From positions 1-26,933 of the IMG/VR virus record IMGVR_UViG_3300026546_000016: a stretch of DNA of 26,933 nt, one strand, 5' to 3'. Position 1 is the stretch's first letter. Each line of letters opens with the position of its first letter. Position numbers and translations under genes: made by a program. The notes below the pieces were generated by a model, which made no database searches, was not told where the DNA came from, and saw only the letters and a program-made list of their open reading frames with translations. Below are positions 3,467 to 21,732 of the stretch, one piece after another. Source of the stretch: a virus (Duplodnaviria > Caudoviricetes).

Positions 3467-3895
3467 ATATTCTCCAGCCATATCTTGAAGGTTACAGAAG
3501 TGGTTACAAAAAATGTAACAGTTACAAAAAAGTTACAGTCAATGTAACCAAGAAAACTTAATAGAAATAGATACTTAAAGTATAAAGTTACAAGTTACAT
3601 TAAAATAGGTTAATATATAGAGAAGTAATACATAGAATAACAGTAGTAGTATTAGCGTATGGAAATAGGTATATATAAGAGAGATTGATGTAACCTTGTA
3701 ATTCTGTAACTTCTACTTCTAAGTGTCTGTTCTATAAAAGCTATTTCAGTTACACTAAAAATGTAACCTTGTTTTCATTTTGTTACCTATTATTGTAACC
3801 AGCTACACTAGCCTGTTTTCATTGGAGAAAAAGTAGTTACAAGGAAAATTACAAAAATGTAACCTAGTAGATGTAAAAAATGTAACCAGTATTAA
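3467..3895 (+). repeat. GTTAC/GTAAC iteron array with an AT-rich core, copy A (candidate replication origin)
   Basis: About 17 GTWAC motifs in both orientations flank a motif-free AT-rich spacer (~3600-3688). Homologous to the reverse complement of 20703-21108. The repeat is directly seen; the origin role is inferred. Confidence 0.85.
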
Positions 3896-3966
3896 AAAAT
3901 GAAATCCATCGTTCATCTATTAAATAGAGAGATATTAAAAAAAGTAAAAAAAAGTTGTAAAAAAGG

Positions 3967-3995
3967 TTGACAAACAATTATGGAATACATATACT
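3967..3995 (+). promoter_or_regulatory. Sigma-70-type promoter with A-tract UP element
   Basis: TTGACA (3967-3972)-N17-TATACT (3990-3995), with A-tracts at 3937-3964. Confidence 0.75.
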
Positions 3996-4033
3996 GTGAA
4001 TGTTACATTAGTGTTAAGAGTCATAAACAAATG

Positions 4034-4077
4034 AAAAGACCCTGCCAGTGAGATAGTCATTGAGCAGGGTTTCTTTT
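4034..4077 (+). terminator. Intrinsic-terminator-like hairpin
   Basis: ACCCTGC-CAGTGA-gatag-TCATTG-a-GCAGGGT followed by TTCTTTT. Confidence 0.6.
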
Positions 4078-4150
4078 ATGTCCATAGCACTTAATATCTT
4101 TGTCTCAAGAGAAAAACACTTTGGAGGCAATATGATATTACCCTAGCTTC

Positions 4151-4166
4151 TGGCACATCTCTTGCT
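4151..4166 (+). promoter_or_regulatory. Sigma-54 (-24/-12) promoter upstream of the primase-helicase
   Basis: TGGCAC-ATCTC-TTGCT is a perfect match to TGGCAC-N5-TTGCW. Confidence 0.85.
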
Positions 4167-4202
4167 AATGTATCTTTCTGAAACTTTTTTGAACCAAAGG
4201 GG

Positions 4203-4232
4203 TTGACAACAGGTATGTGTAAGTACTATAGT
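4203..4232 (+). promoter_or_regulatory. Possible sigma-70-type promoter for the primase-helicase
   Basis: TTGACA (4203-4208)-N18-TATAGT (4227-4232). Confidence 0.5.
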
Positions 4233-4288
4233 GACCCTTGTTATGGTTTTAATGTCAAATCCACTTAATTAATTGAAGGAGAAATCCC

Positions 4289-6868
4289 ATGTTTATGACC
4301 ATTTTTAACAATGTAACAGACCAACAAGGTAAAGTAGCTAATCCATCTTTCGACAAATTCTTTGAAATGCTAGAAGCTGAAGCAAAGAACACAACACCTA
4401 AAAAAGAATGCAGATTGTGGTCTCCAGCAGTATATGTAAATGGAAATAGAAGTAAGGGATCTGAATTAGAAGAGAAAACAAACGTAATTGGCTTGGATAT
4501 AGATGGTATATCGAAAGAAGAAATGGAGACAGTATTTAGGTTCTTAGCCCCATTCAAATATATTGCACATACAACAGCTACTCATGGGTTGAAACAGGTA
4601 AAAGCAAACGAAAAATGGAGAATCATACTTCCATTACAACATTTCGTTGGAGAAGCTAATTACCTCAAGATTACCAATTACATCAACAACAGTATTGGTA
4701 AAGTCTTAGACAAACAAACCCTTTCAGTTAAACGCTTATTCTTCTTCCCAACATCAGAAAATGGAAAACCAAGACTCTATAAAAGTGATGGTCAATTACT
4801 CTCATTGTCTTTTGTTGAAAAAGAGTTAATTGAAGACCCAGATGAATTTGTTACTGCTGATGTAGAATATGAAGTAGATGCTCCTGTAGTAGAAGATACA
4901 TTTGATGGAGATTTAACTGAAGATACAGTCGAAGCCGAAGTAAGACCTACAGTAGAAAATATAGTTGAATATATCTCCTTTTATGCAAAAGATGCTGGAG
5001 ATGGTGAACGTCATGAACAACTCATGAGATTGACCTTAATTTTAGCCAAACATAACCAAAAATATACTGACAACCAAGTATCTCAGATGTTTGAGCGACT
5101 CATTAAAGAAAACAATACAAATGGTGGAACAGACTCCATAGAAGAAGTAATCGAAAAGTACACTTCTGCTGTTAAGAAAATTAAACAAGGCGAATTAGAA
5201 GCAGAGCAATCTAAAGCTAGTGTATTTGTTACTCCAAAAGGTGAAGAAACAGAAGAACAAAAGGACAAGAGAAGGATTGAAGAAGCTCAACAACGCTATA
5301 TCCAAGACCTTGATAGAGAAAATAGACTTTCTGTACCTCCAAGACACATCTTTACTAAACAAGAAGCAGAAGAATTAGGTATTCCTCATCTTTTTATGGT
5401 AGTTCAACAAGGTAAATCTGTTCTAAAAGAGATGTGTATGTCAAATGAAGGTCAGTTGTACCCTGTAACTATTCCAAAATCATCCATTAAAGACAACCTC
5501 GAAACAGACTATTGGATTAAAAGAGGATATGACATATTTCAAGTAAAAAATGAGTTCAAGAAAGACTCAAAAGGTAAAAAGAAGTTAGTCAAAGTCGTAA
5601 GAAAAATGACTTCCAGCACTTTCTTTTCAGTTTATGTAGCTAAAAATGCCAACTTTGAGACCATGACAACTTTATTTCACAACAAAATTAATGTTGATGG
5701 AACTAGACTCTATTTACCATTAAAAGGTAGAGTATCTTATGAACCAAAACAACATGATGAAGTAAAAGAATTGATAGATCTTCTTGGAGGAAAGAACAAA
5801 ACTAGATTACGTAGATGGTTTGAACTCTTTGCTGACAATTCAATGAATCCCAAAGGACGTAGCACTTCTGGAGCATTAAGTGTTCTAGTTCTTATAGGTA
5901 AATCTGGAGTTGGAAAATCCTCGATCATTGACTTCTTGAGTGCTTATGTAAATCCTTCCAAAAGAAATACTTTAGATCTCATGGCAGGAACATTTACAGA
6001 TGCTTTAGAACAACAATTTGTAGTTGGTCAAGATGAAACTCAAACCGCACTTAGTTCCAATAAAGTACAAGGATTCATTCGACAATTAATTAGTGCAAAT
6101 GAACATACTCTAAATAAAAAGTTTGGTGGATTAACTTCTATTAAAGGGTATCTAAGAATTGTATTAGCTGGTAATGACTACGGTATTTTACCTTCCAATG
6201 GTATTGAAACTGATGATGCAAGAGATGGATCTGTCGTTCGATTCCTAATAAATCCACTAGATGAAGAAGACCAACAAAAGAAATTGAGAGTATTCTGGGA
6301 CAAAATTACAGAAGAAGGTAGATATGAGGAATTAAAACAACATTTCTGTGAACAATTAGAGTGGTGGAAACAAAATCCACAAATGCTTTCACCTAAAGAA
6401 GAACAACAAAAATATGGCATCAAAGACCTCAGATTTGGAGTATATTCTGCACCTGAAAAATACACTGAATTAGTTGCATCAGGAGCTTCTGGAAACATTT
6501 CTCAACAATACTTCTCTGATGCTGTTCAAAGTTGGTTAAAGAATCCAGAACTTTTATCCAGTATCTCTGAAGGTGATAGTCCTGATATTGCTATTATGAA
6601 GAATGATGAAATGTTCATAAGACCAACAGCATTAGAAACCTTCCTATATCAATTTAAAGACAAAGATGATTGCGACAAAAAACATATTACAAGAGCCACT
6701 CTTAAAAAAGTACTTAATACCTTCAAAGTAGGTGGAACTAAGGTAATTAAAAGCAACAACAAATCAGCTAGATATGCTAGAATCCCTAAGACCTCCATAT
6801 ATCTCTTGTTGAAAGATACAATGGATAGAGACGAAATTACAGAATTACTTAGTACATTCTCTGGTTAA
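4289..6868 (+). CDS. AEP-type primase (PrimPol) fused to a PriCT-like region and an SF3/DUF5906-like helicase
   Basis: N-terminal AEP motifs LWSPAVY, IGLDIDG, HTTATH, WRIILPL; PriCT-like GDGERHEQL; Walker A GKSGVGKSS, Walker B VVGQDE, and motif C RIVLAGN. GAAGGAG SD. Confidence 0.88.
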   Translation: MFMTIFNNVTDQQGKVANPSFDKFFEMLEAEAKNTTPKKECRLWSPAVYVNGNRSKGSELEEKTNVIGLDIDGISKEEMETVFRFLAPFKYIAHTTATHGLKQVKANEKWRIILPLQHFVGEANYLKITNYINNSIGKVLDKQTLSVKRLFFFPTSENGKPRLYKSDGQLLSLSFVEKELIEDPDEFVTADVEYEVDAPVVEDTFDGDLTEDTVEAEVRPTVENIVEYISFYAKDAGDGERHEQLMRLTLILAKHNQKYTDNQVSQMFERLIKENNTNGGTDSIEEVIEKYTSAVKKIKQGELEAEQSKASVFVTPKGEETEEQKDKRRIEEAQQRYIQDLDRENRLSVPPRHIFTKQEAEELGIPHLFMVVQQGKSVLKEMCMSNEGQLYPVTIPKSSIKDNLETDYWIKRGYDIFQVKNEFKKDSKGKKKLVKVVRKMTSSTFFSVYVAKNANFETMTTLFHNKINVDGTRLYLPLKGRVSYEPKQHDEVKELIDLLGGKNKTRLRRWFELFADNSMNPKGRSTSGALSVLVLIGKSGVGKSSIIDFLSAYVNPSKRNTLDLMAGTFTDALEQQFVVGQDETQTALSSNKVQGFIRQLISANEHTLNKKFGGLTSIKGYLRIVLAGNDYGILPSNGIETDDARDGSVVRFLINPLDEEDQQKKLRVFWDKITEEGRYEELKQHFCEQLEWWKQNPQMLSPKEEQQKYGIKDLRFGVYSAPEKYTELVASGASGNISQQYFSDAVQSWLKNPELLSSISEGDSPDIAIMKNDEMFIRPTALETFLYQFKDKDDCDKKHITRATLKKVLNTFKVGGTKVIKSNNKSARYARIPKTSIYLLLKDTMDRDEITELLSTFSG

Positions 6869-6880
6869 TCGTCATATTCT

Positions 6881-6896
6881 TGGCACACCTCTTGCT
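6881..6896 (+). promoter_or_regulatory. Sigma-54 (-24/-12) promoter upstream of the DNA polymerase
   Basis: TGGCAC-ACCTC-TTGCT in a 75-bp intergenic gap; 20/21 identical to 4151-4171. Confidence 0.85.
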
Positions 6897-6943
6897 AATG
6901 TGGGAGGGTGTCATTTTTCTTTTAACACCTTTGGAGGTAAACC

Positions 6944-8869
6944 ATGAAAACCATCGTCATTGATACAGAAACAGTAGTAGTTCCTAATGAAAACATATTT
7001 AAACCCAAACAAGTAGTATGTCTTTCCTTAGCTTCTAAAGAATATCCAAATGGTACTTTATATCCCACATTTGAAATAGAGCAGGTTATGAGAGATGTAT
7101 TGACCTCTGACAGTATAATTGTTGGACATAATATATCGTATGATATGAGAGCTTTAAGAAATTCCTTTCCTTCTCTCCAACCTTTAATTGACCAAGCATA
7201 TTCTGAAATGAGAGTAATGGATACCATGATTCAGGCTCGGTTACTTTACATTAGAGAACCGAATAGGTTTAGTGCATCAGATCGTAGGTATTCTCTGGAT
7301 AAACAAGTAGAATACTGGTTAAAGGACAAATCAGTAAACAAAGAAGACGAATGGCGTATGAGATATGGAGAACTATTAAACAAACCTATATCTGAATACC
7401 CAGAAGAAGCTAAAAAATATGCTATCCATGATGCCTATATCACTAGAAGACTTTGGATGAAACTCCAATTAGTTCTAGGACAAAATAAACCTGAACCTGC
7501 TTGTGCTAGAGAAACTACCTTTGACTATTCCCTATCCAATATCTCAGAAAATGGATTAAAGGTGGATAGAATTGAAGTTGAAAGAATAGAAAGGTTCTTA
7601 GAAGAAAGGATTGCTACATTAGAAGAGGAATGTAAACCCCTATTCCATGAAAAAAAGAAGAAAGGTAAATATACAGTCAACCAAAAGGAACTAAAAAGAA
7701 GAGTAGAAGCATCTTATGAAGTCAAAAAAAGTCCATATATGAAAGCAGAAGTACCTAGAACAGACAAAGGAAACATCATCACCAATGAAGAAACCTTAAA
7801 ACAATGTTCAGATCCTCTACTTCAAAAGTATCTGGAATTAAAACAGTACAAAAAGTTAAACTCAACTTATATTGGCAAATTAAATACCAATTATGTCCAT
7901 CCTCGTTACAAAGTATTAGGTGCTGTTACAGGTAGAACATCTTGTTCCAGTCCTAATGTCCAGAATCTTCCAAGAAAGGGAGATATTCGCTCATGTTTTA
8001 TTCCATCAGAACTTGGTAGGGTATTCATAGCTTGCGATTATTCTGCTCAAGAGATGAGGACTCTAGGACAAGTTTTATTGGACAAATTTGGAGTAAGTAG
8101 ATTAGCTAGTAAATTCAAAGAAGATCCTTATTTCGATCCTCATACATTGTTCGCACAAGAGATGGCTGGAAAACAATGGGAAAATATGGACAAAAAAGCA
8201 CGAAAAGAATTAAGACAAAAAGCTAAGATAGCTAATTTCGGTTTTGCTGGAGGTATGGGAGCAACTACATTGGTTAAATATGCAAAAGGATATGGTACTG
8301 AATTAACACAAGAAGAAGCAGAAACATTAAAATACCACTGGTTCAAGACATGGAAAACTATGTCAAAATACTTCAAAGAAGCAAGCAGAGTATCTAAGAT
8401 GTATAAACCTTTTTTACTTCTTAAAAGACAGCAGATGTTTAAAGGATTCAAGAGATTAAAAGAAGGTGGTTATAGATGTTTTACTCAAATAGCTAATGGT
8501 GAATTTCAAGGTCTAGCTAGTGTAGCTTCTAAATATGCAGTACATTTAGTAGATTTAGCTACCAGAGACTCTAAAAGTATCCTATTTAAATGTAAAATTA
8601 GAGCATTCATTCATGATGAAATCATTTTAGAAGGGGACATGGAGAATAGAACTGCTCAAGCTCAAGAATTAAGTAGGTTAATGGTAAAAGCAATGCAAGT
8701 AATGGTTCCTGATGTCCCAGCAGTAGCAGAACCTTCAGCAATGCACAGATGGACAAAAGAAGCAGAAATGGAATATGAAGATGGAGAATTAAAAGTATTT
8801 GGTACTCCATACTATATAGACTCTACATTAGGAGAAAATTATGATGATGTCGATATTTGGGACTTTTAG
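6944..8869 (+). CDS. polA: Family A DNA polymerase with 3'-5' exonuclease (no 5'-3' exonuclease domain)
   Basis: ExoI IDTET, ExoII GHNISYD, ExoIII YAIHD; TGRTSCSSPNVQNLP; motif A DYSAQEMR, motif B RQKAKIANFG, motif C IHDEI. Confidence 0.95.
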   Translation: MKTIVIDTETVVVPNENIFKPKQVVCLSLASKEYPNGTLYPTFEIEQVMRDVLTSDSIIVGHNISYDMRALRNSFPSLQPLIDQAYSEMRVMDTMIQARLLYIREPNRFSASDRRYSLDKQVEYWLKDKSVNKEDEWRMRYGELLNKPISEYPEEAKKYAIHDAYITRRLWMKLQLVLGQNKPEPACARETTFDYSLSNISENGLKVDRIEVERIERFLEERIATLEEECKPLFHEKKKKGKYTVNQKELKRRVEASYEVKKSPYMKAEVPRTDKGNIITNEETLKQCSDPLLQKYLELKQYKKLNSTYIGKLNTNYVHPRYKVLGAVTGRTSCSSPNVQNLPRKGDIRSCFIPSELGRVFIACDYSAQEMRTLGQVLLDKFGVSRLASKFKEDPYFDPHTLFAQEMAGKQWENMDKKARKELRQKAKIANFGFAGGMGATTLVKYAKGYGTELTQEEAETLKYHWFKTWKTMSKYFKEASRVSKMYKPFLLLKRQQMFKGFKRLKEGGYRCFTQIANGEFQGLASVASKYAVHLVDLATRDSKSILFKCKIRAFIHDEIILEGDMENRTAQAQELSRLMVKAMQVMVPDVPAVAEPSAMHRWTKEAEMEYEDGELKVFGTPYYIDSTLGENYDDVDIWDF

Positions 8870-8928
8870 TGAACAAACCTCCCTATTTACCGTATTACTA
8901 GAAGACAACTTAAAAAAAGAGGTGTACA

Positions 8929-9471
8929 ATGAAGATTCAATGTAAAAAATGTAAGCAAATGGTAGAATATACGGGGAAACCAACCTCATATACCTACTTC
9001 AAAGAGAAAAACAAATGGATGTGTAGATCCTGTTTTCTACAAAAGAACGCAGATGAAGCCAAGAAGTTCGCAGAAATGCACAATCTTCCTGACTTAATTG
9101 GTTCTGAAAAAGAAGTTAATTGGGCTAATACCATTAGGAAAGGTTGGATTGAAAAGATAGGAGAAGCAAGTAGGAAATTTGCATCGAAAATTACCCAAGC
9201 ATCTACCTTCATAACATTGAGGGAAGCTAAATCAGTCGATGGAGTCCTTCTTGGATTAAGAAAATCTCCAAAATTACAGGTCTTAGGTGGTTCTGAGAAA
9301 CAAGTAGCGTATGCTAAGAGACTTTATTACCAACTATTGATGGAAGATTTACTAAGAGAAGATGCTGGAGAAGAAATAGAGAATGGAGAAATCCTATTAA
9401 AAGCTCTTAAATGTCAAACAGCTAAAGAAGCAATAGACATTCTGAAAGGACAATCCAATGAGAATCTATAA
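8929..9471 (+). CDS. Hypothetical protein with an N-terminal Zn-ribbon and two GSEK(Q/E)VxxA motifs
   Basis: CKKC…CRSC; LIGSEKEVNWANTIR and LGGSEKQVAYAKRL; GAGGTG SD. Confidence 0.8.
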   Translation: MKIQCKKCKQMVEYTGKPTSYTYFKEKNKWMCRSCFLQKNADEAKKFAEMHNLPDLIGSEKEVNWANTIRKGWIEKIGEASRKFASKITQASTFITLREAKSVDGVLLGLRKSPKLQVLGGSEKQVAYAKRLYYQLLMEDLLREDAGEEIENGEILLKALKCQTAKEAIDILKGQSNENL

Positions 9472-10138
9472 TCTTGGTAGTGGTTCTTCAGGAAATTGCA
9501 CATATTTTAAGTTTGATGGATATGAGTTCTTAGTTGATGTTGGTTTTTCTTACAAGGAAATTAAAAAGAGACTTGCTTCTATTGGAGTAGATATTCTTGA
9601 TATTAAAACTATCTTCATAACACATGGACATTCTGACCATAATAGAGCATTACAGACCTTTAAAAAAAGAAACAAACCTATATCCATTAACCCACCTCAT
9701 ATTGGTAGAGCTTTCTCTTTAAACCACTCGGTTCCATGCAAGGGATTTACCTTTGAAGTTCATGAAATTGAAGATGAAAAGATAGGATATTTAACTGATA
9801 CAGGATATGTACCTCCATTTGCTGTTCATGCTTTGGAGAGATGTTCAATCTTAATAGTCGAAAGTAACCATAATGAGGAGATACTATTTACAAACAAATA
9901 TGCAGAAGATAGTAGAATGCCAGCATCTATTTACGACAATATAGTGTCAAAAAAAGGTCATTTAAGTAACAGACAAGCAGAGGAATTAATATCCTTTGTA
10001 CGACCTAAAATTGTAGCCCTTGCTCATTTATCTGCTCACAACAACAATGAACAGCAGTTAAAGCATAGTGGACATTTAATTCTCCAGCAAAATGAAGTGA
10101 CCAAAATAATAGACACAGAAGAAGAGGAGTCAATCTAA
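9458..10138 (+). CDS. Metallo-beta-lactamase-fold hydrolase, YycJ/WalJ-like (probable nuclease)
   Basis: LGSGSSGN, LVDVG, THGHSDH, TDTG, ESNH, GHLSN and LAHLS..NN motifs. Confidence 0.9.
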   Translation: MRIYNLGSGSSGNCTYFKFDGYEFLVDVGFSYKEIKKRLASIGVDILDIKTIFITHGHSDHNRALQTFKKRNKPISINPPHIGRAFSLNHSVPCKGFTFEVHEIEDEKIGYLTDTGYVPPFAVHALERCSILIVESNHNEEILFTNKYAEDSRMPASIYDNIVSKKGHLSNRQAEELISFVRPKIVALAHLSAHNNNEQQLKHSGHLILQQNEVTKIIDTEEEESI

Positions 10139-10286
10139 AATCTTCTTTCTTTTCCATGAGTTGCCTCACCTTTTTCTTTTATTTCCTACCAATATCTTCA
10201 TAAATCTCTGAAAGCCCCGTAGCTCTAAGGTAATCGTCTTTTCAAAAGTTAAAAAACACCTGCAACTATCTGGAATTAAAGGACAG

Positions 10287-10315
10287 TTGACACATTAAAA
10301 GAATAGGTGTATAAA
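10287..10315 (+). promoter_or_regulatory. Sigma-70-type promoter for the packaging/morphogenesis operon
   Basis: TTGACA (10287-10292)-N17-TATAAA (10310-10315). Confidence 0.65.
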
Positions 10316-10413
10316 AAATAGAACATAAAGTATTGAAATTAAAAACCAAAGATGGTCTTAATTGAACCATTTTGTAACAGTTAGCGTCTTAATATAAAGA
10401 GGAGGAGAATAAG

Positions 10414-10824
10414 ATGGCAAGAGTAAAAAATCCATTAAAAAAGAGTCAGAAATGGACTGCTAAGAAGAAGAGAGAACTGGAAGCTCAATTAGTAGAGCTT
10501 GAGGACAAAGAAATAGCAAAGGTTTCAAAAGTTCATGCTGAATTAAGAAAAATTAAGAGAAGTGAAGGTAAATTAAAACCTAAACATTTACTAGATAAAG
10601 TCTTGGAAGTTCTTTTCATTCATGTTGGAAGAATGGGAGAATTAGATGCTAGTGCTACTATTAAAACATCTGTTGAAATTGTAAAAGCACTTGGAGCAGT
10701 AGTAAACAAATTCCCAGAAATGCAGGATGATATTCTTAATGATTCTGAGGATGAAAGTAAAGGGTTGGTTCTTGTGATGAATAAGGTTAAAGATATTAAA
10801 GATGCGAAGAAAAAGGCAAACTAA
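10414..10824 (+). CDS. Putative terminase small subunit
   Basis: Directly upstream of terL; size and basic helical character fit; GAGGAG SD. The function is inferred from position. Confidence 0.55.
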   Translation: MARVKNPLKKSQKWTAKKKRELEAQLVELEDKEIAKVSKVHAELRKIKRSEGKLKPKHLLDKVLEVLFIHVGRMGELDASATIKTSVEIVKALGAVVNKFPEMQDDILNDSEDESKGLVLVMNKVKDIKDAKKKAN

Positions 10825-10840
10825 ATAGCAAGGTAAACCA

Positions 10841-12130: not shown

Positions 12131-12144
12131 CTTTGGAGAAGAAA

Positions 12145-12432
12145 ATGGTAAAAAACAAACTTAGTGAACATAAGATTCGTAGATATATGGAAGAAGGATT
12201 AGACTATGAACAAATTGCAATTAAAGAAAGAATGAATACTCTTACTGTTAAAAGTAGAATGAGAGATCTTAATATAAAATATCTACGTTGCGATTTATGT
12301 AACAACTATATACCATTTGAAGAATTACATGGAAATATCCCAAAACATAGAGTGGAAGAGGCTAGAATAGTTTTCCATTTCTGTTCTGAACAACATAAAG
12401 AAGATTGGTTAAGAGGAGACTCACATGATTGA
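12145..12432 (+). CDS. Small protein with an HTH-like N-terminus and a TRASH/YHS-like Cys motif
   Basis: ATG 12145 after GGAG; GLDYEQIAIKERMNTLTVKSRM (HTH-like); CDLC…FHFCSEQH. Confidence 0.65.
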   Translation: MVKNKLSEHKIRRYMEEGLDYEQIAIKERMNTLTVKSRMRDLNIKYLRCDLCNNYIPFEELHGNIPKHRVEEARIVFHFCSEQHKEDWLRGDSHD

Positions 12433-13852
12433 AATCTTAAAACAACTCAAAAATGCTATTGGTCGAGATAAGGAAAGACATCTTTATATAGAGAATGTCT
12501 GGAATGTTTATTCTGGTAGCTGGGAGGATTCATCATTGACTACTCCTACACTTAGATCTGGGAAACCATCAAAATCCTTAATTATGAAGGAATTAGAGAA
12601 AAGATTTCCAGTGACATGGAAGAAATTAGCCAGAAATGCAGATACTTCCATAAATCTTCTTAGATGGGCTTCTTCTAAGGTAGGAAATATCTATGATGTA
12701 CCTACTACAAGATTAGTAAATGACGAAGAAGTACCTCAATATGACACTGCAATTCTCCAACAAACTTTAAGTCAATTAGTTCCTCTATCTTATGCTTTAA
12801 GAAATATGTTTATTCGTCCAATGGTTGTTGAAGGTGAAATCCTTTATGACGTAATTAGACCTGACCAAGCTACTGTACTTCCAGATCCATTGAATCCAAG
12901 AAAATTACTTGCAATAGCATATAAGGTTGGAACTAGATATGTTGTTTGGACTAAAGAGAATCATTGGGTCTTTGGATCTCAAGATTTCAACAATCCTATC
13001 TTAAACCCTGAGAACCCAAATAATGTAAATCCTTATGGAATTGTTCCAGTTGTTAGTGTTCCTAATGATTTCCCTATTGGATCGTTCTGGGATACATTTG
13101 GAAGCAATGAACTCTATACATCTTCTATTGAAACTGCTATTGCATTAACAGATTTAAGAAGACTCCAACAAGTAGCATCCCATAAACAGCCATATCTCAA
13201 AGGAGATCCAGATAAGGACTTTGACAGATTTGCTATATTAGACCCTGCTAACCCTATCATATTAAGAGGGAAGGAAGCTACAGCAGGTGTATTAGATCTT
13301 AAAGCAGACTTACAACAAGGAATGTCAACCATATTAAAAATAGCTGGAGCAGTCCTATCTTTTATGGGATTTAATCCTAAGATAGTTACTGGAGAATCTG
13401 CATCACCTCAATCAGGTTTTGCTATATTACTCCAAAATGCTGATTTAGAAGCGGTTAGAGACAAATTAAGAACAACATGGACTCTACATGAGCAATCTCT
13501 ATACAGTGTTACTAGACAGGTAGTTGAAGTTGAAAGGTTACACCCAGAAAATAGTAGTTTAGAATCATTACCTGAAGGACAAATTACTACACTTTTTGGA
13601 GATACCTCAAATCCTCTATCTCCTCAAGAAGAAAAAGATTACTGGCATTCAAGATTACAAGGTGGTACTACTACATTAGTAGATGTTTTAATGGAACTTG
13701 ATGGACTTTCTAAAGAATCTGCTGAAGAGAAAGCATTGGAAATTGAGGAATATAAAAATAGAAGTGCTGTAACAAGTACATTCTTTCCACCTCCAATGGA
13801 AGAAACTGAAGAAACAATAGAAGAACCTGAAGTAAATGAAGAGGATATATAA
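12425..13852 (+). CDS. Portal protein
   Basis: 475 aa after terL; NPYGIVPVV and SGFAI motifs typical of SPP1-like portals; acidic C-terminal tail. Confidence 0.85.
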   Translation: MIEILKQLKNAIGRDKERHLYIENVWNVYSGSWEDSSLTTPTLRSGKPSKSLIMKELEKRFPVTWKKLARNADTSINLLRWASSKVGNIYDVPTTRLVNDEEVPQYDTAILQQTLSQLVPLSYALRNMFIRPMVVEGEILYDVIRPDQATVLPDPLNPRKLLAIAYKVGTRYVVWTKENHWVFGSQDFNNPILNPENPNNVNPYGIVPVVSVPNDFPIGSFWDTFGSNELYTSSIETAIALTDLRRLQQVASHKQPYLKGDPDKDFDRFAILDPANPIILRGKEATAGVLDLKADLQQGMSTILKIAGAVLSFMGFNPKIVTGESASPQSGFAILLQNADLEAVRDKLRTTWTLHEQSLYSVTRQVVEVERLHPENSSLESLPEGQITTLFGDTSNPLSPQEEKDYWHSRLQGGTTTLVDVLMELDGLSKESAEEKALEIEEYKNRSAVTSTFFPPPMEETEETIEEPEVNEEDI

Positions 13853-14620
13853 ATGTCTCACTTAGATTCTTTACTAAAAAAATATGCAACAGTTTTACCA
13901 AATGTTCAAAAGATCCTATTTGACTATTTAAAAAGTAAGAGAGATCCTGTAACTAAATTGTTACCTCCAATCTCTTCTAATGAACTACTGACTGTATTAA
14001 ATAGTGCTGGACTCCAACAAATCCAAGATCCTGAATTACTGCATGAACTATATACATCATCTGTTTCATCTGTATTAAATGAGGTAGCTTCATTGACAGA
14101 TTTGAATATATCGTTAATATCTCCTGAAACAGTAAAACTATCTGTTGAAGGAACTCAAGTACAAATGGCTAGTATATCTCAAAGAGCTTTGTCTAACATA
14201 GGTTCTATTGTTCAAGAATCTGCTCTTATTCCAATGTCTTTAAATACAATGGCTGAGAAATTAAAAACAGAAACCAATGTTATGTTAGGACAAGCCAAAA
14301 CATTAGTGAATACTGGATTAGCTCAAGTTCAAAGGAAATCATTGGTGTCTCAAGCACAGGAAGATTCCTTGTTTCTATATGAAGGAGCAAATGATAGTGC
14401 AACTAGACCATTTTGTAAAGCTATTGTTGGAAAAGTATTTACAAAAAAACAAATAGCAAAACTGAACAACAAACAAGGCTTGGGCGTATTACTAAATGGA
14501 GGTGGGTATAATTGCAGACATAGATGGCTCCCAGTCTCAAAAGAATATGTCAAATCTAATGGATTGGTTTTAGCATCAGAAACTGATGTATTAAAAGCTA
14601 ATTCAGAGGCTACAAGATGA
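13853..14620 (+). CDS. Minor head / head morphogenesis protein
   Basis: C-terminal D..TRPFC…GGYNCRH.W motif; follows the portal. Confidence 0.8.
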   Translation: MSHLDSLLKKYATVLPNVQKILFDYLKSKRDPVTKLLPPISSNELLTVLNSAGLQQIQDPELLHELYTSSVSSVLNEVASLTDLNISLISPETVKLSVEGTQVQMASISQRALSNIGSIVQESALIPMSLNTMAEKLKTETNVMLGQAKTLVNTGLAQVQRKSLVSQAQEDSLFLYEGANDSATRPFCKAIVGKVFTKKQIAKLNNKQGLGVLLNGGGYNCRHRWLPVSKEYVKSNGLVLASETDVLKANSEATR

Positions 14621-15033
14621 AATTAAAATTAACATTAACAGCAGAAGAACAAGAGAGAGTCTCCAAGTTGTTAAATAAAGAACTTGCTGAACTCAATAAA
14701 AAGTTAGCTCTTGCTCAATTAGCTAATATCCAAAGAAGAGTATCTCAAGGTCTGGGATTAGATGGTAAAATGAAACCATATTCAAAATCCTATTCCAAAA
14801 TAAAAAAAGAAGCTGGTAGAAGAGTTAATGTTAGAAACCTAGAATTTACTGGAAGAATGCTTTCAGATATGGGTATTTCAGAGATAGACGATGGAGTATA
14901 TGTAATTCATTTTTTAACAGCCCAACAACGATTAAAAGCACTTTCCAATCAGATGAGAGAAGCATGGTTTGGAATCACTGATGAAGAAAGAAATATGTTA
15001 ATGAAACTAGCTAAGAAAGAGGTAGAAAAATGA
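14617..15033 (+). CDS. Virion morphogenesis protein (neck/tail-completion-like)
   Basis: KPYSKSY.K.K…NL.FTGRML and R.WFGI motifs; ATGA overlaps on both sides. Confidence 0.65.
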   Translation: MKLKLTLTAEEQERVSKLLNKELAELNKKLALAQLANIQRRVSQGLGLDGKMKPYSKSYSKIKKEAGRRVNVRNLEFTGRMLSDMGISEIDDGVYVIHFLTAQQRLKALSNQMREAWFGITDEERNMLMKLAKKEVEK

Positions 15034-15575
15034 CCACAGAAAACAATGGACAACAAGAGCAACAAGAAAACAAAGAAACACCAGAGACCAAAGAAGGTCA
15101 ACAAGAGCAACAAGATACTCAAGAAACACCAGAAACTAATCCTGAAGTTGAAGGTTTAAAGAAACAAATCGAAGATCTCCAATCTCAGCTAACTAAAGCT
15201 AATGAGCAACTTGCTGGATTTACTTCAGAAGCTGAATCGCAAGAGAATAAAAGTAAAGAACTTGAAGCTCTTTTGGAAGCAGAAAAGAAAAGAGTAGAAG
15301 AATTACAAAAAAACGCACTAGAAACCACCTCCCAACGTATTACAGAGATGTTAGATGGTGCAGATAAGAAAATCATTGAAGCATTAAGTCAATTCGATGA
15401 TGACCCTGAAAAGAAATTAGAACACCTTTTACTCATTAGAGAGTATGGGTTACTTAAAAAAGAAGCTCCACCTAGTACATCTAATGATAGGGCTTCTGGT
15501 GATGAAAATAACAAACAGCCCATTTTGTCTTTTTCAGAACTTCAAAAAGCTGAAACTAATGGGGCTTACAAATAG
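15030..15575 (+). CDS. Capsid scaffolding protein
   Basis: Acidic low-complexity N-terminus and coiled coil; directly upstream of the major capsid gene. Confidence 0.75.
   Translation: MTTENNGQQEQQENKETPETKEGQQEQQDTQETPETNPEVEGLKKQIEDLQSQLTKANEQLAGFTSEAESQENKSKELEALLEAEKKRVEELQKNALETTSQRITEMLDGADKKIIEALSQFDDDPEKKLEHLLLIREYGLLKKEAPPSTSNDRASGDENNKQPILSFSELQKAETNGAYK
15048..15137 (+). repeat. In-frame tandem duplication with a 48-bp period (GQQEQQxxxETPET x2)
   Basis: Copies start at 15048 and 15096. Confidence 0.8.
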
Positions 15576-15588
15576 GAGAATATAACAG

Positions 15589-16608
15589 ATGGCTATTCAA
15601 GAACTTAACTCGGCATTCCAAAGAGATATTGGTCAGATTGTCGTTAGTGCTATAAAAAGACAAGGTGTTGGTAATGAACTCGGCTTGAAAAATAGTTGGT
15701 TAGGATTACTTGGATCTTTTAACAGAATCGAATTTATGCCTTTTGCTCCATCTAAGATGGCAGAAAAAATGGTAGTTCCTTATGCTTCAGCAGGCACAGC
15801 AGAGTACTATGATTTGGATTCTGCACCCCAAGCCGCTGGAAATGAGTCTGTAAAGACCGCTAATATTGCTTTTGCAAGTGCAAGAGATGTTATGCGTATC
15901 CGTAATTTCGATGAAGCCGCTCTTAAATCTGAAGTTACATTAGTTAATGAAGGACTTCTTGGACATAATACAAAAGAAGCAATGAAAAACATTGTAGATA
16001 TTATGGAAAAAGGTCTTAGAGACGGTCTTGGTGTAGGAAGCGACCCTTACGGTATGGCATTTTGGGTAAACAACTCCAGTGTTTATGGTAATATCGACCA
16101 AGCTGTTGATACTTGGTCACAAGCTACTCTCATTAATGCAGGTGGATCTGCTTTGAGCTTGAAACATCTTCGTGAAGCAGTTGAAGGTGTTGTTGATGCT
16201 AATGGTGGAGAAGTTCAAGTAATTGTCTCCAGTGCAAGACAACGCAATAAATATCGTGAATTAATTGGGTCAAAAACTACAAACAACAATATGAAAATTG
16301 GTGATGCTGAATATAGTGTTGAATTTTACGATGACATCCCTTGGGTTGTTATTCCAAAAATGACTAATTCTGTAGTTTATGGTCTCAATATGGAAACTTT
16401 TGTAATGAAGATTCTCCTTCAAAAAGCTCCTGATGGTTCTCTTCCTCAGCTTTCTAATATCGAACAAGCTGGTCTTCCATTTGCTATGCGTTATCTTGGA
16501 AATGTAAATGACGATGCTAGATATGCTATTACCAATTACCATCAATTAGTCTGTAGAAAACCTTGGCAGAACTTCAAGATCTATGGTCTTTCCACTTCAC
16601 TTTCTTAA
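15589..16608 (+). CDS. Major capsid protein (HK97 fold inferred)
   Basis: 339 aa after the scaffold, AGGAG SD, followed by a terminator. Confidence 0.8.
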   Translation: MAIQELNSAFQRDIGQIVVSAIKRQGVGNELGLKNSWLGLLGSFNRIEFMPFAPSKMAEKMVVPYASAGTAEYYDLDSAPQAAGNESVKTANIAFASARDVMRIRNFDEAALKSEVTLVNEGLLGHNTKEAMKNIVDIMEKGLRDGLGVGSDPYGMAFWVNNSSVYGNIDQAVDTWSQATLINAGGSALSLKHLREAVEGVVDANGGEVQVIVSSARQRNKYRELIGSKTTNNNMKIGDAEYSVEFYDDIPWVVIPKMTNSVVYGLNMETFVMKILLQKAPDGSLPQLSNIEQAGLPFAMRYLGNVNDDARYAITNYHQLVCRKPWQNFKIYGLSTSLS

Positions 16609-16647
16609 TCTGTTCTTTTTTTGCCTTTTTCTTGGACAGATGAGATT

Positions 16648-16684
16648 AACCTTGCCCTCTTCGGAGGGTTTGGGTTTTTCTTTT
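16648..16684 (+). terminator. Rho-independent terminator after the capsid gene
   Basis: AACCTTGCCCTC-TTCG-GAGGGTTTGGGTT (C-UUCG-G loop) followed by a T-rich run. Confidence 0.8.
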
Positions 16685-16713
16685 AATTTATGTTTTTTTA
16701 GAGGAAATATATT

Positions 16714-17067
16714 ATGGCAGATAACCAACCGACAAATTGGGAAAAGATTTATGATGAAGAGGAAACAATGCCTGTAGGAACATCTGGGATACACGCACGT
16801 AAGATCTACCTCTTTACTCCTCCAAAGTCCTATCCTACTGGAGGATTTGACCTAGACTTAGAAACTAATTGTGGAGTAACTGGAGATATTCTGCTTTGTC
16901 AGCTTGATCCACAGAATGCAAATTCCAACAAGATTGACAAGTTCAATTACACCACAAAAAGGATGGTCATTCGCAACAGAGCAGACAGGACAGAGGTTGC
17001 TGATGGCACAGACATTTCTGGTATCGACAAGGCAAGACTTACAGTCATTTCGATTGTAAACAAGTAA
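16714..17067 (+). CDS. Small virion protein, probable head decoration protein (paralogue 1)
   Basis: Follows the capsid gene; shares Y.TGGFDL and EVAD.TD.S motifs with the next gene. Confidence 0.65.
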   Translation: MADNQPTNWEKIYDEEETMPVGTSGIHARKIYLFTPPKSYPTGGFDLDLETNCGVTGDILLCQLDPQNANSNKIDKFNYTTKRMVIRNRADRTEVADGTDISGIDKARLTVISIVNK

Positions 17068-17108
17068 ACTAGCCAAAATTGGCATTAAACATAATGGAGA
17101 ATTAAAAG

Positions 17109-17444
17109 ATGGCTACATTAACTGGATATACTAAATTGTTTTCAGACCAAGATTCTATTCGAGATGGTTTCAGTGGTTCAAGTCGTCAGATTTATGGTGC
17201 AGTAGGTGGTGCTTATGCTACAGGTGGATTCGATTTAAATCCTCTTACAGATATGGGTGCAGAAGGTACTATTGCTAGTGTAAAAGCAGAATTTCAAGAT
17301 GGTTCTGGTGCATATTACTGTGCATACGACTACACCAACAAAAAGTTGAAGGTATACGTACACGCTACAGGTGCGGAAGTAGCAGACACAACAGATCTTT
17401 CAGCATTGCATTTTCGTATCGAATCTATTTCATCTTTGGTTTAA
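17109..17444 (+). CDS. Small virion protein, probable head decoration protein (paralogue 2)
   Basis: GGAG SD; YATGGFDL…YDYTNKKLKVY…EVADTTDLS. Confidence 0.65.
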   Translation: MATLTGYTKLFSDQDSIRDGFSGSSRQIYGAVGGAYATGGFDLNPLTDMGAEGTIASVKAEFQDGSGAYYCAYDYTNKKLKVYVHATGAEVADTTDLSALHFRIESISSLV

Positions 17445-17503
17445 TTTAATTTAGAAAATAAGAAAAAGGGTAGTGTTTGGCTACCTTATTTGGAGGCTTT
17501 ATC

Positions 17504-17920
17504 ATGGAATATACAGCAAGACAATTAAATGAGATGACCAACACTGCTCGCTTTTCTGCTTACGAGAAGATTGCTAATGAGTCTTCTTTAACAGAAATTA
17601 TGGAATTACCTCTTAGACATCGAGTCCCTGTCATTGATATGGTACGAGGCAATTATGATGCCAGATACTTCTTAGAACTTACTCCAAAGGGTAAGAAGCA
17701 AGCTAAGAAGGACAAAACTGTTAATATTGAAGGTATTGGACAGACCTCTATTTCTTTTAAAGTATCTTCTCCAAAAGGGTTTAGTGCTAGAAGTGCTGTA
17801 TTCCTTTTAGATCGTTATGGAAAAGAAGGAAGACTTGAAGATTGCAGAGGTTTACTCCAAGAAGTTCAAAAACTTACAGATGAAGAAGAATTTAAACAAC
17901 ATTCTGGTGAGGGTAAGTAA
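17504..17920 (+). CDS. Hypothetical protein in the head-neck region (138 aa)
   Basis: ATG 17504 after GGAGG, preferred over the TTG start at 17477. Confidence 0.75.
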   Translation: MEYTARQLNEMTNTARFSAYEKIANESSLTEIMELPLRHRVPVIDMVRGNYDARYFLELTPKGKKQAKKDKTVNIEGIGQTSISFKVSSPKGFSARSAVFLLDRYGKEGRLEDCRGLLQEVQKLTDEEEFKQHSGEGK

Positions 17921-18625
17921 ATGCTAAAGCAGATTCAAAAGGGTTCAACAGCTTCTATTTCAGCTAGATTACTTTTAGAAAGTGAACCTCAAACAATTAC
18001 ATCTGCTACGGTTGAAATTAGGAATCCTAGTGGGTCTGTTTTAGTTCCTGCTACTTCTACTGGAATTAGTGGATTAGGGACATCAGAAGTAACTTACATT
18101 AGGTCTTGGGATTCTTCGACTTTTCCAAAAGATGTTGGATATAAAGCTGTTTGGTTGTTTACTGTTTCTGGTGTTCAATATTCAAAAGAAACTTTTTTTA
18201 ATGTTGTTCCAAGATTGTTAGTTTCAGATTTAACTGATGAAGATATATTTAAAGAGTATCCTCATATAGAAGATGAAGCACCTACAACAGGATTAAAGGC
18301 ATGGAGAATTGCTTGTTGGGAAGAAATTGTAGCAGGTATTTCCTCTACATTTCAGAATGAAGAAGCTCTTGGACGAATATTTAATCCAGATATATTTCAT
18401 CGTTCTCATTTATATGGCACTCTCCATAAATTTTACTTTCAGAATGCTCATTTTACTTCTACAATGAATGAAGATTGGGACAAATCTGCTTCATTTGGAG
18501 AACTATATAAAGAATCTCTTGGAATAGCTATGCAACAATTAGCTATAGATTATGATGATTCAGGGTTAATGGACAATGAGAATCAAGAACCAAAAGCAGT
18601 TGCTACTGTAGAATGGGGAAGATGA
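17921..18625 (+). CDS. Putative head-tail adaptor with an N-terminal beta-rich (Ig-like) domain
   Basis: Beta-rich N-half (ATVEIRNPSG…GYKAVWLFTV) and helical C-half; assignment from position. Confidence 0.55.
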   Translation: MLKQIQKGSTASISARLLLESEPQTITSATVEIRNPSGSVLVPATSTGISGLGTSEVTYIRSWDSSTFPKDVGYKAVWLFTVSGVQYSKETFFNVVPRLLVSDLTDEDIFKEYPHIEDEAPTTGLKAWRIACWEEIVAGISSTFQNEEALGRIFNPDIFHRSHLYGTLHKFYFQNAHFTSTMNEDWDKSASFGELYKESLGIAMQQLAIDYDDSGLMDNENQEPKAVATVEWGR

Positions 18626-19053
18626 TGTTAGCAGATGTACTTACAGAAATAGATTCGGTCATTATTTCCACTGGATTACATATTACAGTAGATGAAACAG
18701 CTTTGAGAGAAGGTTCTTTGTCCCATGCCTCGAAAGCTAAATTTGAAGATTCTTTTGTAACCTCCATTAGTTCACATAGACCTGTAGAAGAATTTAATTT
18801 ACATGAAGAATGGCATAATTTTACATTAGATCTTGAGGTTGGTGGAACTATATCCAGAGATGGGCGTAAATCTGCTGTAGCTTCTCTGTTAAGTAAAATG
18901 GTGGAAGTTCTGGAAGCATTAGTTAGGCATTCTAATTTTTCTCAGATTAAAGGCGTACAATTAAACGAAGATACAACTTTTAGTTTTCTTGATGGGAACC
19001 GAATCGTTGCTCATACGTCTTTTATTGTGTACTACTATTGGAGGACAACATGA
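18622..19053 (+). CDS. Putative tail terminator / neck protein
   Basis: Size, alternating alpha/beta pattern and position before the tail tube; ATGA overlap. Confidence 0.5.
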   Translation: MMLADVLTEIDSVIISTGLHITVDETALREGSLSHASKAKFEDSFVTSISSHRPVEEFNLHEEWHNFTLDLEVGGTISRDGRKSAVASLLSKMVEVLEALVRHSNFSQIKGVQLNEDTTFSFLDGNRIVAHTSFIVYYYWRTT

Positions 19054-19220
19054 GAACGCAAAGAGGTCAAAATGACCATATAAAAGCAAATGAAGAAGTT
19101 AAAAAAACTGAAGAACATAAAGAAATTAAAGAAGTTAAAACAATTAAAGAACCGAACATCATTGAACCTATAGATGCTCATATTTCTGAAATTAAGCCTA
19201 CCAAGAAGGAGACAAACTAA
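19050..19220 (+). CDS. Small K/E-rich low-complexity protein (56 aa)
   Basis: GGAGG SD, ATGA overlap with the upstream gene and TAATG overlap with the downstream gene. Confidence 0.65.
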   Translation: MRTQRGQNDHIKANEEVKKTEEHKEIKEVKTIKEPNIIEPIDAHISEIKPTKKETN

Positions 19221-20563
19221 TGGCAGGGAATTTAAAACTAAAAAATATCGGTACTCTTTTCTTCTGTCCAGAAGTAACTCAGGGTACGGCTAATTACGAC
19301 AATACTACTACAGCATTGGGGACTTCCACTACAGCTATTGTTGCTGGACTTGGTGGTTCTGACGATATGTTTATCGGTCTCCAGATGTATTTTTATTCAG
19401 GAGCTAATGCTGGAAGATTGGTTACAATTACAGATTATGTTAGTTCAACTGGTACTTTCACATTTACTCCTGCTGATGGTGGTAGTGCTTTAAGTGCTGT
19501 AGCTTCAGGAGAGAAATTCACTCTTGGATCTATTCTTCCAAATGCTGTTCCTACAGTGAATGGTACTACAAAAAGCCTTACTAGAGAATGGGAAAGTGAT
19601 ACTCTGGATAAACCATCTGATTTGGTAGGTCTTTCTGAATCAACAGTTAGTGCAGAAGTTCATATTGGTGGACTTGAAAGCTCTGCTGGTGATGGTATTG
19701 ATGCTCCTGTAGATAGATTCACTAGATTCTTGGAAATGATTGGCGAAGTAGATAGTGGAACTGGCACTAAAATTGCCTCTAATTGGTCTTCTGCTACTTC
19801 TGGTTCTGTTTCTAGTATAGCTGGATTAAGTGTAAATAGTCCAATTATGGTAAACAATGAAGTTGCTATCATTGACACTATTTCTGGAACTACCATTACA
19901 GTACATCCTGCTTTCTCTTCAAATCCTCAAGCAAATGATGTAGTATATGCAGGTCAGACATTTACTCCAGATGACACTGGACATTTAAGTTGTACATTCT
20001 GTCATGTACGAGATGACCAACTCTTTATTGCAACAGGAGTAGTTGGGAACTTCAAGACTTCTGGAGCATTCAACGATCTCTTTAAATTTACCTTTGATGG
20101 ACAAGGTGATGGCTGGGATGTAGAAGATTCTTATTCAGATATTGATGGTATCCAATCTTCAGTAAAACCTATTGCATTAATTTCAGCTAGAGTCCATTTT
20201 GGAGATACTACTCTTTGGTGTAATTCTATGGACTTTGATTTTGGACATGGAATCGAGAATTTAGAAGATTGTAATGCTGGTGTTCAAAAGCTCATTACAA
20301 CTAGAGCATCTGTAGCAAGTGTAACCTTTAGAAATGCTAACAAAACCGCATTAACAACTTGGAACAAAGAGAAAACAAAAGGTACATTGGTCATTCAAGC
20401 AGGTGGTTCTCCAGCAGATTGTGTTGTTCTTTATGGAGATGTCCAAATTGTTTCTGTTGAAGATGCGGATTATGGTGGAGTTAGAGGATATAAAGCATCT
20501 CTTAAATTCTATGACGACAGACAGTCTCTAACAGCTTCTAAGCCTCGTTTAGCTAGATTGTAA
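19220..20563 (+). CDS. Major tail (tube) protein with inserted beta-rich domains
   Basis: Ser/Thr/Gly-rich beta protein; last long gene before the tail chaperone and tape measure; AAGGAG SD. No separate sheath gene is seen. Confidence 0.7.
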   Translation: MAGNLKLKNIGTLFFCPEVTQGTANYDNTTTALGTSTTAIVAGLGGSDDMFIGLQMYFYSGANAGRLVTITDYVSSTGTFTFTPADGGSALSAVASGEKFTLGSILPNAVPTVNGTTKSLTREWESDTLDKPSDLVGLSESTVSAEVHIGGLESSAGDGIDAPVDRFTRFLEMIGEVDSGTGTKIASNWSSATSGSVSSIAGLSVNSPIMVNNEVAIIDTISGTTITVHPAFSSNPQANDVVYAGQTFTPDDTGHLSCTFCHVRDDQLFIATGVVGNFKTSGAFNDLFKFTFDGQGDGWDVEDSYSDIDGIQSSVKPIALISARVHFGDTTLWCNSMDFDFGHGIENLEDCNAGVQKLITTRASVASVTFRNANKTALTTWNKEKTKGTLVIQAGGSPADCVVLYGDVQIVSVEDADYGGVRGYKASLKFYDDRQSLTASKPRLARL

Positions 20564-20626
20564 TATATCTATCCTCCTTCCTTTTAAAACCTCTCTAAAT
20601 CCTTCTATTTACATCTTACATTAATA

Positions 20627-20654
20627 TTCCTCCATTTATGTTCCTCCATTTATG
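20627..20654 (+). repeat. Perfect tandem 14-bp duplication TTCCTCCATTTATG
   Basis: Copies at 20627-20640 and 20641-20654, then a partial TTCC. Confidence 0.85.
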
Positions 20655-20702
20655 TTCCATATCAATGTCTCTCCATTTCTCTTCATAGATATTCTGAATC
20701 CC

Positions 20703-21108
20703 TTTAATATCCAGTTACATTTTTACTTCCTGACCTGTAACCAAAGAATCTTTAATGTAAACACATAGTTACATCTGTTACTAAAAAAGGTTACATTTTG
20801 TGTTTTCTATAGTGTAACCGAAACTCCTTTTCTATTTCAACTACTTATGGAAGAAAGTTACAGAATTACAAAGTTACAGAAGGTCTCCTTATATTACTCT
20901 AATTCCATACGCTATTCTATACAACTTCTATTCTATGTATTATTCTACTATATATATATCTATTTTAATGTAACTTGTAACTTTATATATTAAGTATTTA
21001 ATCTTATTATGTTTTTCTGGTTACATCTACTGTAACTTTTTTGTAACTGTTACATTTTTTGTAACCCATTATTGTAACCTCTTTTCTAAGTTAGCAAGCT
21101 GGAGATAT
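20703..21108 (-). repeat. GTTAC/GTAAC iteron array, copy B (inverted, diverged homologue of 3467-3895)
   Basis: Reverse complement of 21029-21066 is identical to 3502-3539 (38 bp). Reverse complement of 20960-20987 is identical to 3581-3608 (28 bp). About 16 GTWAC motifs. Confidence 0.9.
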
Positions 21109-21207: not shown

Positions 21208-21732
21208 ATGGCTACATTCAAAGATTCAGCAAGACTTGAAAAATTACCTTTCACATTTGTTTCTATTCATGATGCTATTGAATGGGACAAGATGGATATA
21301 TCGAAAGAAGAGTATATCCAAGATAGAGACAATTTAGTAGGAAAAGTTGTTGGAGATGTAATTAAATTTACTCTTCACTATCCTACAAAATCCGAGTTAC
21401 TATATGCTTTTGGTAAATCTGGAGCATCATTCAACAAAGATGGTGAAATGGTATTCGGTAAAATAGATGGATTAGATTCCACTGCTACAGCCTTATTAGC
21501 AATGACAGATCAAGCTATTGAATTAGCTACCCTTTGTATTGAGAAGATTGAGAATTTAAATGATTGTCCAAAGAATATACATGATACCCCTATTCGCAAG
21601 CATTTAAAAAAGATTAAGAAAGACTTTCACAATAAGAAGAAAGAGTATTTTATTCCAAATGTTGTTTTAGAAGAAATAGGTACTCATTTGTTAGTTGGAT
21701 CGAAGGTCTCTGAAGAGGAAAAAAAGCAGTAA
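21208..21732 (+). CDS. Tail assembly chaperone (gpG-like)
   Basis: Between tail tube and tape measure; GAGG SD; ends GAA AAA AAG CAG TAA with a slippery heptamer. Confidence 0.8.
   Translation: MATFKDSARLEKLPFTFVSIHDAIEWDKMDISKEEYIQDRDNLVGKVVGDVIKFTLHYPTKSELLYAFGKSGASFNKDGEMVFGKIDGLDSTATALLAMTDQAIELATLCIEKIENLNDCPKNIHDTPIRKHLKKIKKDFHNKKKEYFIPNVVLEEIGTHLLVGSKVSEEEKKQ

Follow-up and report, generated by a model that had tools for sequence, protein, structure and literature searches.

Why should a tailed phage carry the same repeat-rich element twice, in opposite orientations and about 17.3 kb apart, once upstream of its primase-helicase gene and once inside a probable tail operon? The question is raised by IMG/VR record IMGVR_UViG_3300026546_000016 (Duplodnaviria; Caudoviricetes), analyzed here over its whole length of 26,933 bases (the window; rated 31% complete); a 32,409-base assembly encodes the same proteins, with about one-sixth of it outside the window. 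An earlier note, made from the sequence alone, had described two inverted elements rich in GTTAC/GTAAC pentamers, here called A and B, and read them as twin origins or as substrates for inversion of the segment between them. Here, we report that A and B likely bind the primase-helicase of the phage, A as the likely primary origin of replication and B, an insertion in the probable tail operon, as a likely second site of origin type. The elements, their parts, and their candidate binder are the following.

3467..3895, plus strand: element A, two arms that together hold 17 GTTAC/GTAAC pentamers and flank a core that is AT rich and purine skewed
20703..21108, minus strand: element B, inverted homologue of A, with 16 pentamers
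3502..3539, plus strand: 38-bp block, exactly equal to the reverse complement of 21029-21066
3581..3608, plus strand: 28-bp block, exactly equal to the reverse complement of 20960-20987, with a tandem GTTACA pair at the core edge
20929..21008, no strand: 80-bp stretch with the lowest duplex stability in the window, the predicted unwinding site in B
3559..3638, no strand: 80-bp stretch with the second lowest duplex stability in the window, the predicted unwinding site in A
4289..6868, plus strand: primase-helicase gene (859 amino acids), its product predicted to bind A and B

Element A sits between leftward genes and the promoters of the primase-helicase gene, about 400 bp upstream of that gene, and is a probable primary replication origin. 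Element B, a probable second origin-type site, occupies a 644-bp gap between the probable tail-tube and tail-chaperone genes, about 14 kb downstream of the primase-helicase gene, and the two inverted repeats bracket a segment of about 17.5 kb. The window holds 79 GTTAC/GTAAC pentamers; when 79 motifs were placed at random 10,000 times, no 400-bp stretch had more than 9, against 17 in A and 16 in B. Each element has a tandem GTTAC pair, a core of 96 to 97 bp, and a GTAAC pair, the repeat arrangement of origins in Staphylococcus aureus pathogenicity islands (SaPI) and phage-inducible chromosomal islands (PICI), and the 38-bp block contains GTTACA-N5-TGTAAC and TGTAAC-N-GTTACA palindromes. The most easily melted stretch of the window (computed with nearest-neighbour values) lies in B, where it is also the lowest-G+C 80-mer (14%). 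Because B keeps the arms, the spacing, and the core, it is likely both bindable and meltable. A coding role was rejected for both elements (longest stop-free runs, 45 amino acids in A and 74 in B), as was cumulative GC skew as an origin locator (a local dip at B alone, due to the strand bias of B itself). Contig depth, flat by construction, yields no replication profile. A tandem 14-bp repeat lies on the tube side of B (20624-20651), with one copy fewer in run X2, described below.

Self-BLAST aligned 3489-3774 with 21080-20783 in inverted orientation (79% identity over 303 columns; E value, 3e-62). Pentamers 1 to 11 have matching orientations in the two elements, and their spacings differ by at most 1 bp (A: 12, 12, 6, 11, 12, 43, 7, 96, 16, and 43; B: 13, 12, 6, 11, 12, 43, 7, 97, 16, and 43). 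With a motif column defined as one with a pentamer present in either copy, substitutions were found in 0 of 60 motif columns and 49 of 223 spacer columns (Fisher P, 3.6e-6), and the chance that 12 of 12 aligned pentamers survive a uniform 17% divergence is about 1e-5. Sequence comparison thus indicates that A and B are both under motif-level constraint. These results bear out the earlier description of two inverted homologues with identical 38-bp and 28-bp blocks, some 16 to 17 motifs each, and differences mainly between the motifs. Its claim of colinear homology over the whole spans held for about 290 bp, to about 3775/20783; the final 120 bp or so agree at the motif level only (local score P, 0.054; not significant), and the outer flanks are unrelated (P, 0.32).

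Both copies are real and not an assembly duplicate because in run X1, possibly the source of the record, the 38-bp block formed a single contig of about double depth (20.6 versus 8.6 to 9.5) with four distinct flanks, and because run X2, from a different study, has both copies in a strain about 98 to 99% identical on long contigs. The A of X2 differs from B by as much as that of the window does (25 letters and 7 gaps). The X2 contigs cover B on either side of 20940-21028. In 20703-20939 a single spacer position is changed, and in 21067-21108 four positions are listed as changed; all changes listed within B lie outside the pentamers, and by comparison 21093-21289 has 13 changes over 197 bases.

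The candidate binder was modeled with AlphaFold2 from a 117-sequence alignment (pLDDT, 84), after a first model (2 sequences; pLDDT, 35) had been discarded. The domains of the model and the polymerase gene that follows are listed below.

4289..6868, plus strand, protein domains: archaeo-eukaryotic primase (AEP), residues ~1-190; helical bundle, ~220-305; superfamily 3 (SF3) helicase, ~460-730; probable winged-helix C terminus, ~733-859
6944..8869, plus strand: family A DNA polymerase with 3'-5' exonuclease (family match)

The helicase region matched the NrS-1 primase-helicase (Z score, 15.1; root mean square deviation [rmsd], 6.6; 365 residues aligned), to which the protein also has a profile match (E value, 4e-10). 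Further structural matches were to SaPI5 PriRep (Z, 12.8; rmsd, 3.7; 215 aligned), to PriRep1 (Z, 12.5; rmsd, 6.4; alignment reaching residue 855), and, for residues 1-181, to the S-2L AEP domain (Z, 9.5; rmsd, 3.2); Foldseek concurred. AEP and SF3 folds are thus both present in the one protein, as in an SF3 initiator with a fused primase. Residues 737-832 follow a helix-strand-helix-helix-hairpin order, PriRep1 and Cch align through the C-terminal region, and links in the Atlas lead on to Pox_D5 and HTH_56 clusters; in the model, residues 733-859 are a probable winged helix.

If the protein works as SaPI Rep does, a primase-helicase hexamer would use its C-terminal winged helix to bind the GTTAC(A) repeats on both arms of an element, would melt the AT-rich core, and would load itself there. 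The AEP domain would then prime and hand over to the family A polymerase, and divergent transcription around A could help melting. Element B may fire as an auxiliary origin or may hold bound initiator that stalls a fork and so leads to concatemer (sigma) replication, as proposed for SPP1 oriR; we lean slightly toward the auxiliary origin over the oriR-like fork barrier. The earlier proposal of twin origins bound by the 4289-6868 protein is supported in part and indirectly, by the SaPI-like anatomy, the primase-SF3 model, the motif constraint, and the genes beside similar clusters in other phages (24 of 31, below).

Two known systems come close to parts of this arrangement. SaPI Reps bind penta- or hexanucleotide iterons flanking an AT-rich centre via a C-terminal winged-helix domain and self-load (PMC9371898), and an origin layout of the SaPI type holds across PICIs (PMC6092414). 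As in the pri-rep-ori modules (Rep1, Rep2, and PriRep5), short iterons lie on both sides of an AT-rich centre in opposite directions in A and B, which agrees with the layout claimed earlier, and the predicted initiator is an SF3 helicase with a C-terminal winged-helix domain (probable here) and a primase that is sometimes fused in those systems (fold matches, 7ola and 7pds). Unlike the SaPI origin, which is described as one site of 6 to 12 iterons immediately downstream of rep on a satellite, the window has two copies of 16 to 17 repeats, with A upstream of the gene, and it belongs to a phage that encodes head and tail proteins of its own.

For the two-site layout, the closest precedent is phage SPP1, whose oriL and oriR are similarly built origins (repeats plus an AT-rich unwinding element) 12 to 13 kb apart (PMC6316719 and PMC3485210). 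The oriL site lies at the replication genes, and oriR is an interruption of the late morphogenesis region (PMC6316719); a proposed role of gp38 bound at oriR is to stall forks and thereby set off sigma replication (PMC6316719 and PMC3485210). Like SPP1, the window has two similarly built sites more than 10 kb apart, one of them in the late region (17.3 kb; tube-chaperone gap). Unlike the window, which encodes one AEP-SF3 primase-helicase plus a phage family A polymerase, SPP1 has a separate origin binder (gp38/G38P), a gp39 loader, the DnaB-type gp40, and the host replisome; its oriL lies inside gene 38, whereas A and B are both intergenic, two-armed, and inverted.

The earlier note had cited phage P4 as the two-site precedent, which stands as far as two distant repeat sites go, but P4 ori1 and crr are less close than SPP1 oriL and oriR. 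In P4, ori1 and crr are two separate repeat regions bound by one primase-helicase (alpha) with a winged-helix origin-binding domain; crr is a direct-repeat pair that is no homologue of ori1 and is not known to fire, yet it is required in cis. Unlike these, A is a full homologue of B, and an AT-rich core is present in each.

The NrS-1 primase-polymerase-helicase is the best structural and profile match to the 859-residue protein, at about 15% identity, and the window phage, unlike NrS-1, adds a family A polymerase. NrS-1 primase-polymerase begins primers at TTTGGTTA (PMC8718748), a site that overlaps GGTTAC and has one exact occurrence in B and none in A. No twin origin for NrS-1 was found in the accessible portions of the literature on NrS-1.

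How general is the module? A strict core pattern derived from element A matched about 2,100 stretches in IMG/VR (estimated from 4 of 64 parts). The survey set was 40 records drawn from 119 pattern loci (at least 27 kb long, with at least 9 pentamers outside long open reading frames [ORFs], plus L007 and minus L101); the pattern favors two-copy records, and incomplete records may conceal copies. Among large genes beside the clusters, 24 of 31 tested encode primase or initiator-helicase domains (DUF5906, VapE, D5_N, DUF927/HTH_56, or Toprim), and the cluster mostly lies directly after that gene. Two or three dispersed homologous copies (73 to 87% identity) were found in 6 of the 40 records, G021, G026, G028, G033, G035, and G041. 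These form four groups and may represent as few as two or three lineages: G021 is kin to G033 and G026 to G028 (93 to 94%), and these share about 68% over a few kb with G035. One copy adjoins an identified primase-helicase gene in five of the six; for G021, such a gene is presumed from its kinship with G033. Extra copies lie in the terL-portal gap (G026, G028, and G035), in the portal-scaffold gap (G041), after the endolysin gene (G028), or among unannotated genes. The motif-over-spacer bias recurred in 8 of 8 copy pairs tested (P, 0.02 to 7e-7). In G007 and in G019, the second cluster has no homology to the first and was left uncounted as a copy.

The record most like the window is G041 (complete, about 40.6 to 40.7 kb), with direct copies at 17529-17920 and 36989-37377 (85% identical); one precedes the primase gene in a divergent gap, and the other, 19.5 kb away and nearly opposite on the circle, fills the portal-scaffold gap of the head operon. 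In the two three-module phages, modules lie after a VapE-type primase-helicase gene, between terL and portal, and near lysis or tail-end genes, as follows.

G028, 21012-21255, 28350-28606, and 50484-50728: three homologous modules
G035, 5194-5345, 31997-32251, and 40464-40615: three homologous modules

Separately, reverse transcriptase genes (L177:12754-14001 and L185:40-1197) lie near repeated 115- to 165-bp stretches in G028 and G033, loci consistent with diversity-generating retroelements.

The B locus itself was compared in relatives by means of the genes on either side.

19220..20563, plus strand: probable tail tube gene, upstream of B (by position and synteny; no family match)
21208..21732, plus strand: probable tail assembly chaperone gene, downstream of B, preceding an 889-amino-acid tape-measure-like gene

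The tube, chaperone, and tape-measure genes were assigned by position, their order being common to L050, L054, and L055, and none of the three proteins had a family match. In these distant relatives (32 to 34% tube identity; L054 and L055 are alike over the stretch), the tube-chaperone gap is 10 bp (L050) or 68 bp (L054 and L055), against 644 bp in the window. By this sequence comparison, B is therefore either an insertion in the lineage of the window or a loss in theirs. No close relatives were recovered with primase or tube queries in IMG/VR or with primase queries in GenBank phages and GTDB genomes; the tube alignment retrieved only L050 and L053 to L055, L053 being the window's own contig, and element A gave only 24- to 34-bp chance matches in GenBank phages. 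P0002 (58% identity to the primase) and P0004 (62% to the tube) had genomic contexts that were not readable.

Several of these observations weigh against B as a second origin-type site bound by the primase-helicase. A homologous second copy was lacking in 34 of the 40 surveyed records, and G001, a distant relative whose record is complete, has one cluster and lacks B, so a second copy is not generally required. G001 (L051), which is GC-rich and matches the tail layout of the window, has ten GTTGAAC/GTTCAAC words at 10522-10760, directly after a primase-helicase-like gene (identified by sequence motifs). Because no whole-genome close relative was found, the age of B can be judged from only one other strain, which is near-identical. 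Element A lies upstream of the primase-helicase gene, whereas the SaPI origin and most surveyed single copies lie directly downstream, although G041 too has a copy upstream. Separate matches of the C-terminal domain reach just Z 7 to 8, and the Atlas link to Pox_D5 concerns 17% of one cluster. Finally, B lies inside a transcribed operon, which could hinder firing.

Four other explanations were weighed against an origin-type role. Element B might be bound by the primase-helicase but act on transcription, as a late-operon roadblock or switch tying chaperone and tape-measure expression to the state of replication. Late transcripts probably cross B because no strong promoter or terminator was found within it (5 weak promoter-like sites versus 4.8 expected), and extra copies in G026, G028, G035, and G041 likewise lie between late genes. 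Repeats would suffice for such a roadblock, however, so the conserved 96- to 97-bp meltable core is not needed; the insertion points vary among phages, and late genes make up about half of a genome, so that a late location is expected by chance. We consider this role unlikely.

It is rather improbable that B is nonfunctional and now being lost, as a remnant either of a duplication or of modules exchanged with a related phage. Three distant relatives have no B at the tube-chaperone spot, and the B arm nearer the tube gene is no longer colinear with A, as a relic would allow. A decaying relic is nonetheless unlikely because of the motif bias, with its chance of about 1e-5 of all 12 pentamers surviving uniform divergence; B is also nearly unchanged in X2, and its core is the most meltable stretch of the window.

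Inversion of the 17.5-kb segment, which carries the replication, head, and tube genes, was the alternative offered in the earlier note. Whether homologous or site-specific, such recombination would account for the inverted orientation and the 38- and 28-bp identical blocks, and a junction in run X2 can be read in its favor. There, the shared node is 42 bp instead of 38 bp, the contig on the inner side of A begins four bases later than that of X1, and a 97-bp contig with the outer flank of B opens with four unaligned letters at the shared node. From 30-base overlaps, a minority haplotype (21029-21121) appears to link the outer flank of B to A-type inner letters. With the X2 contigs leaving 20940-21028 of B uncovered, a crossover (inversion) explains the junction as well as a B allele in which two bases are of A type, through conversion or as the ancestral state. 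The joints listed include none with a strand switch between A and B, and the contigs of both runs are short-word contigs, in which a 38-bp node leaves the orientation of the enclosed segment unfixed. Occasional exchange between A and B is plausible. As a purpose, inversion is unlikely because other phages keep direct copies (all six other multi-copy records, four of them, G026, G028, G035, and G041, with identical blocks of 30 to 80 bp) and because a flip would cut the tail operon, separating the chaperone and tape-measure genes from it. None of the 29 window ORFs tested, from an incomplete genome, had a recombinase match. Inversion is accordingly poorly supported and improbable, and the inverted orientation of A and B is probably incidental.

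Least probable of all, the repeats could be priming signals or sites for another protein (a host nucleoid factor, terminase, or an unseen phage regulator, given the sixth of the longer assembly that lies outside the window) rather than helicase-loading iterons, as the overlap of the NrS-1 site with GGTTAC and its exact occurrence in B might suggest, but that exact site is not in A, the palindromic, two-armed, phased repeats suit double-strand binding, and the motif accompanies unrelated primases (Toprim, BT4734-like, and Prim-Pol), nearly always with a helicase-initiator.

With A and B read as origin-type sites for the primase-helicase, the design of each origin resembles that of SaPIs and the two-site layout that of SPP1; neither the combination of these with inverted copies nor twin GTTAC origins were found described in the limited literature collection searched. 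In that collection, SPP1 was the one phage with a second late-region origin, and the role of oriR in the sigma switch there is just a proposal. An SPP1-like layout with a different type of initiator recurs in 6 of 40 records (about four kin groups and possibly fewer lineages), which points to a general solution, and a one-protein initiator makes the two-origin layout testable with a simple minireplicon. The surprise is limited, each component being familiar and the function here being predicted.

Control of the initiator may involve the region between A and the primase-helicase gene, which has two promoters and a predicted RNA.

3967..3995, plus strand: promoter P1, near-consensus sigma70 type (11/12), directed away from A
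4203..4232, plus strand: promoter P2, sigma70 type (11/12), upstream of the primase-helicase gene
3998..4085, plus strand: predicted RNA of about 85 nucleotides, with a 5' part (4001-4029) and a 3' hairpin (4031-4079) followed by a U run

A GTTAC pentamer at 4002 lies close to the predicted start site of P1. The strong 4031-4079 hairpin is predicted by folding (z score, -3.9); the terminator scan did not detect it, and the RNA had no Rfam match at the gathering score. The 5' part of the RNA pairs over 26 bases with 4290-4318 (codons 1 to 10 of the primase-helicase gene) at -25.0 kcal/mol, the best target of 10,738 windows on both strands (the RNA's own complement windows excluded). None of 1,000 base shuffles matched that pairing at 4290-4318, and the best-in-window energies of 15 shuffles were -16.7 to -23.3 (plus strand only, with a coarser step). 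The RNA is a candidate for control of the initiator by an antisense or attenuator mechanism. Acting in trans, it may repress translation of the initiator; alternatively, read-through transcripts may fold back on this sequence, which would leave P2 as the productive promoter. Because both pairing arms contain a pentamer, a DNA-level site pair is an alternative to the RNA. A broader scheme, in which phages with self-loading primase-helicases spread two or three origin copies through late genes while, in this phage, the facing copies exchange, the 17.5-kb block flips, and antisense RNA sets the initiator level, is improbable in its entirety.

Terminase, portal, and capsid genes are also present in the window (family matches). 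A metallo-beta-lactamase-fold hydrolase of the phage "metal-dependent hydrolase" family is encoded at 9458-10138 and had a weak match, below the cutoff, to the anti-Pycsar protein Apyc1. After the capsid gene, two small adjacent genes with a common GGFDL motif, apparently paralogues, lie at 16714-17444, and a run X2 contig joins across the pair.

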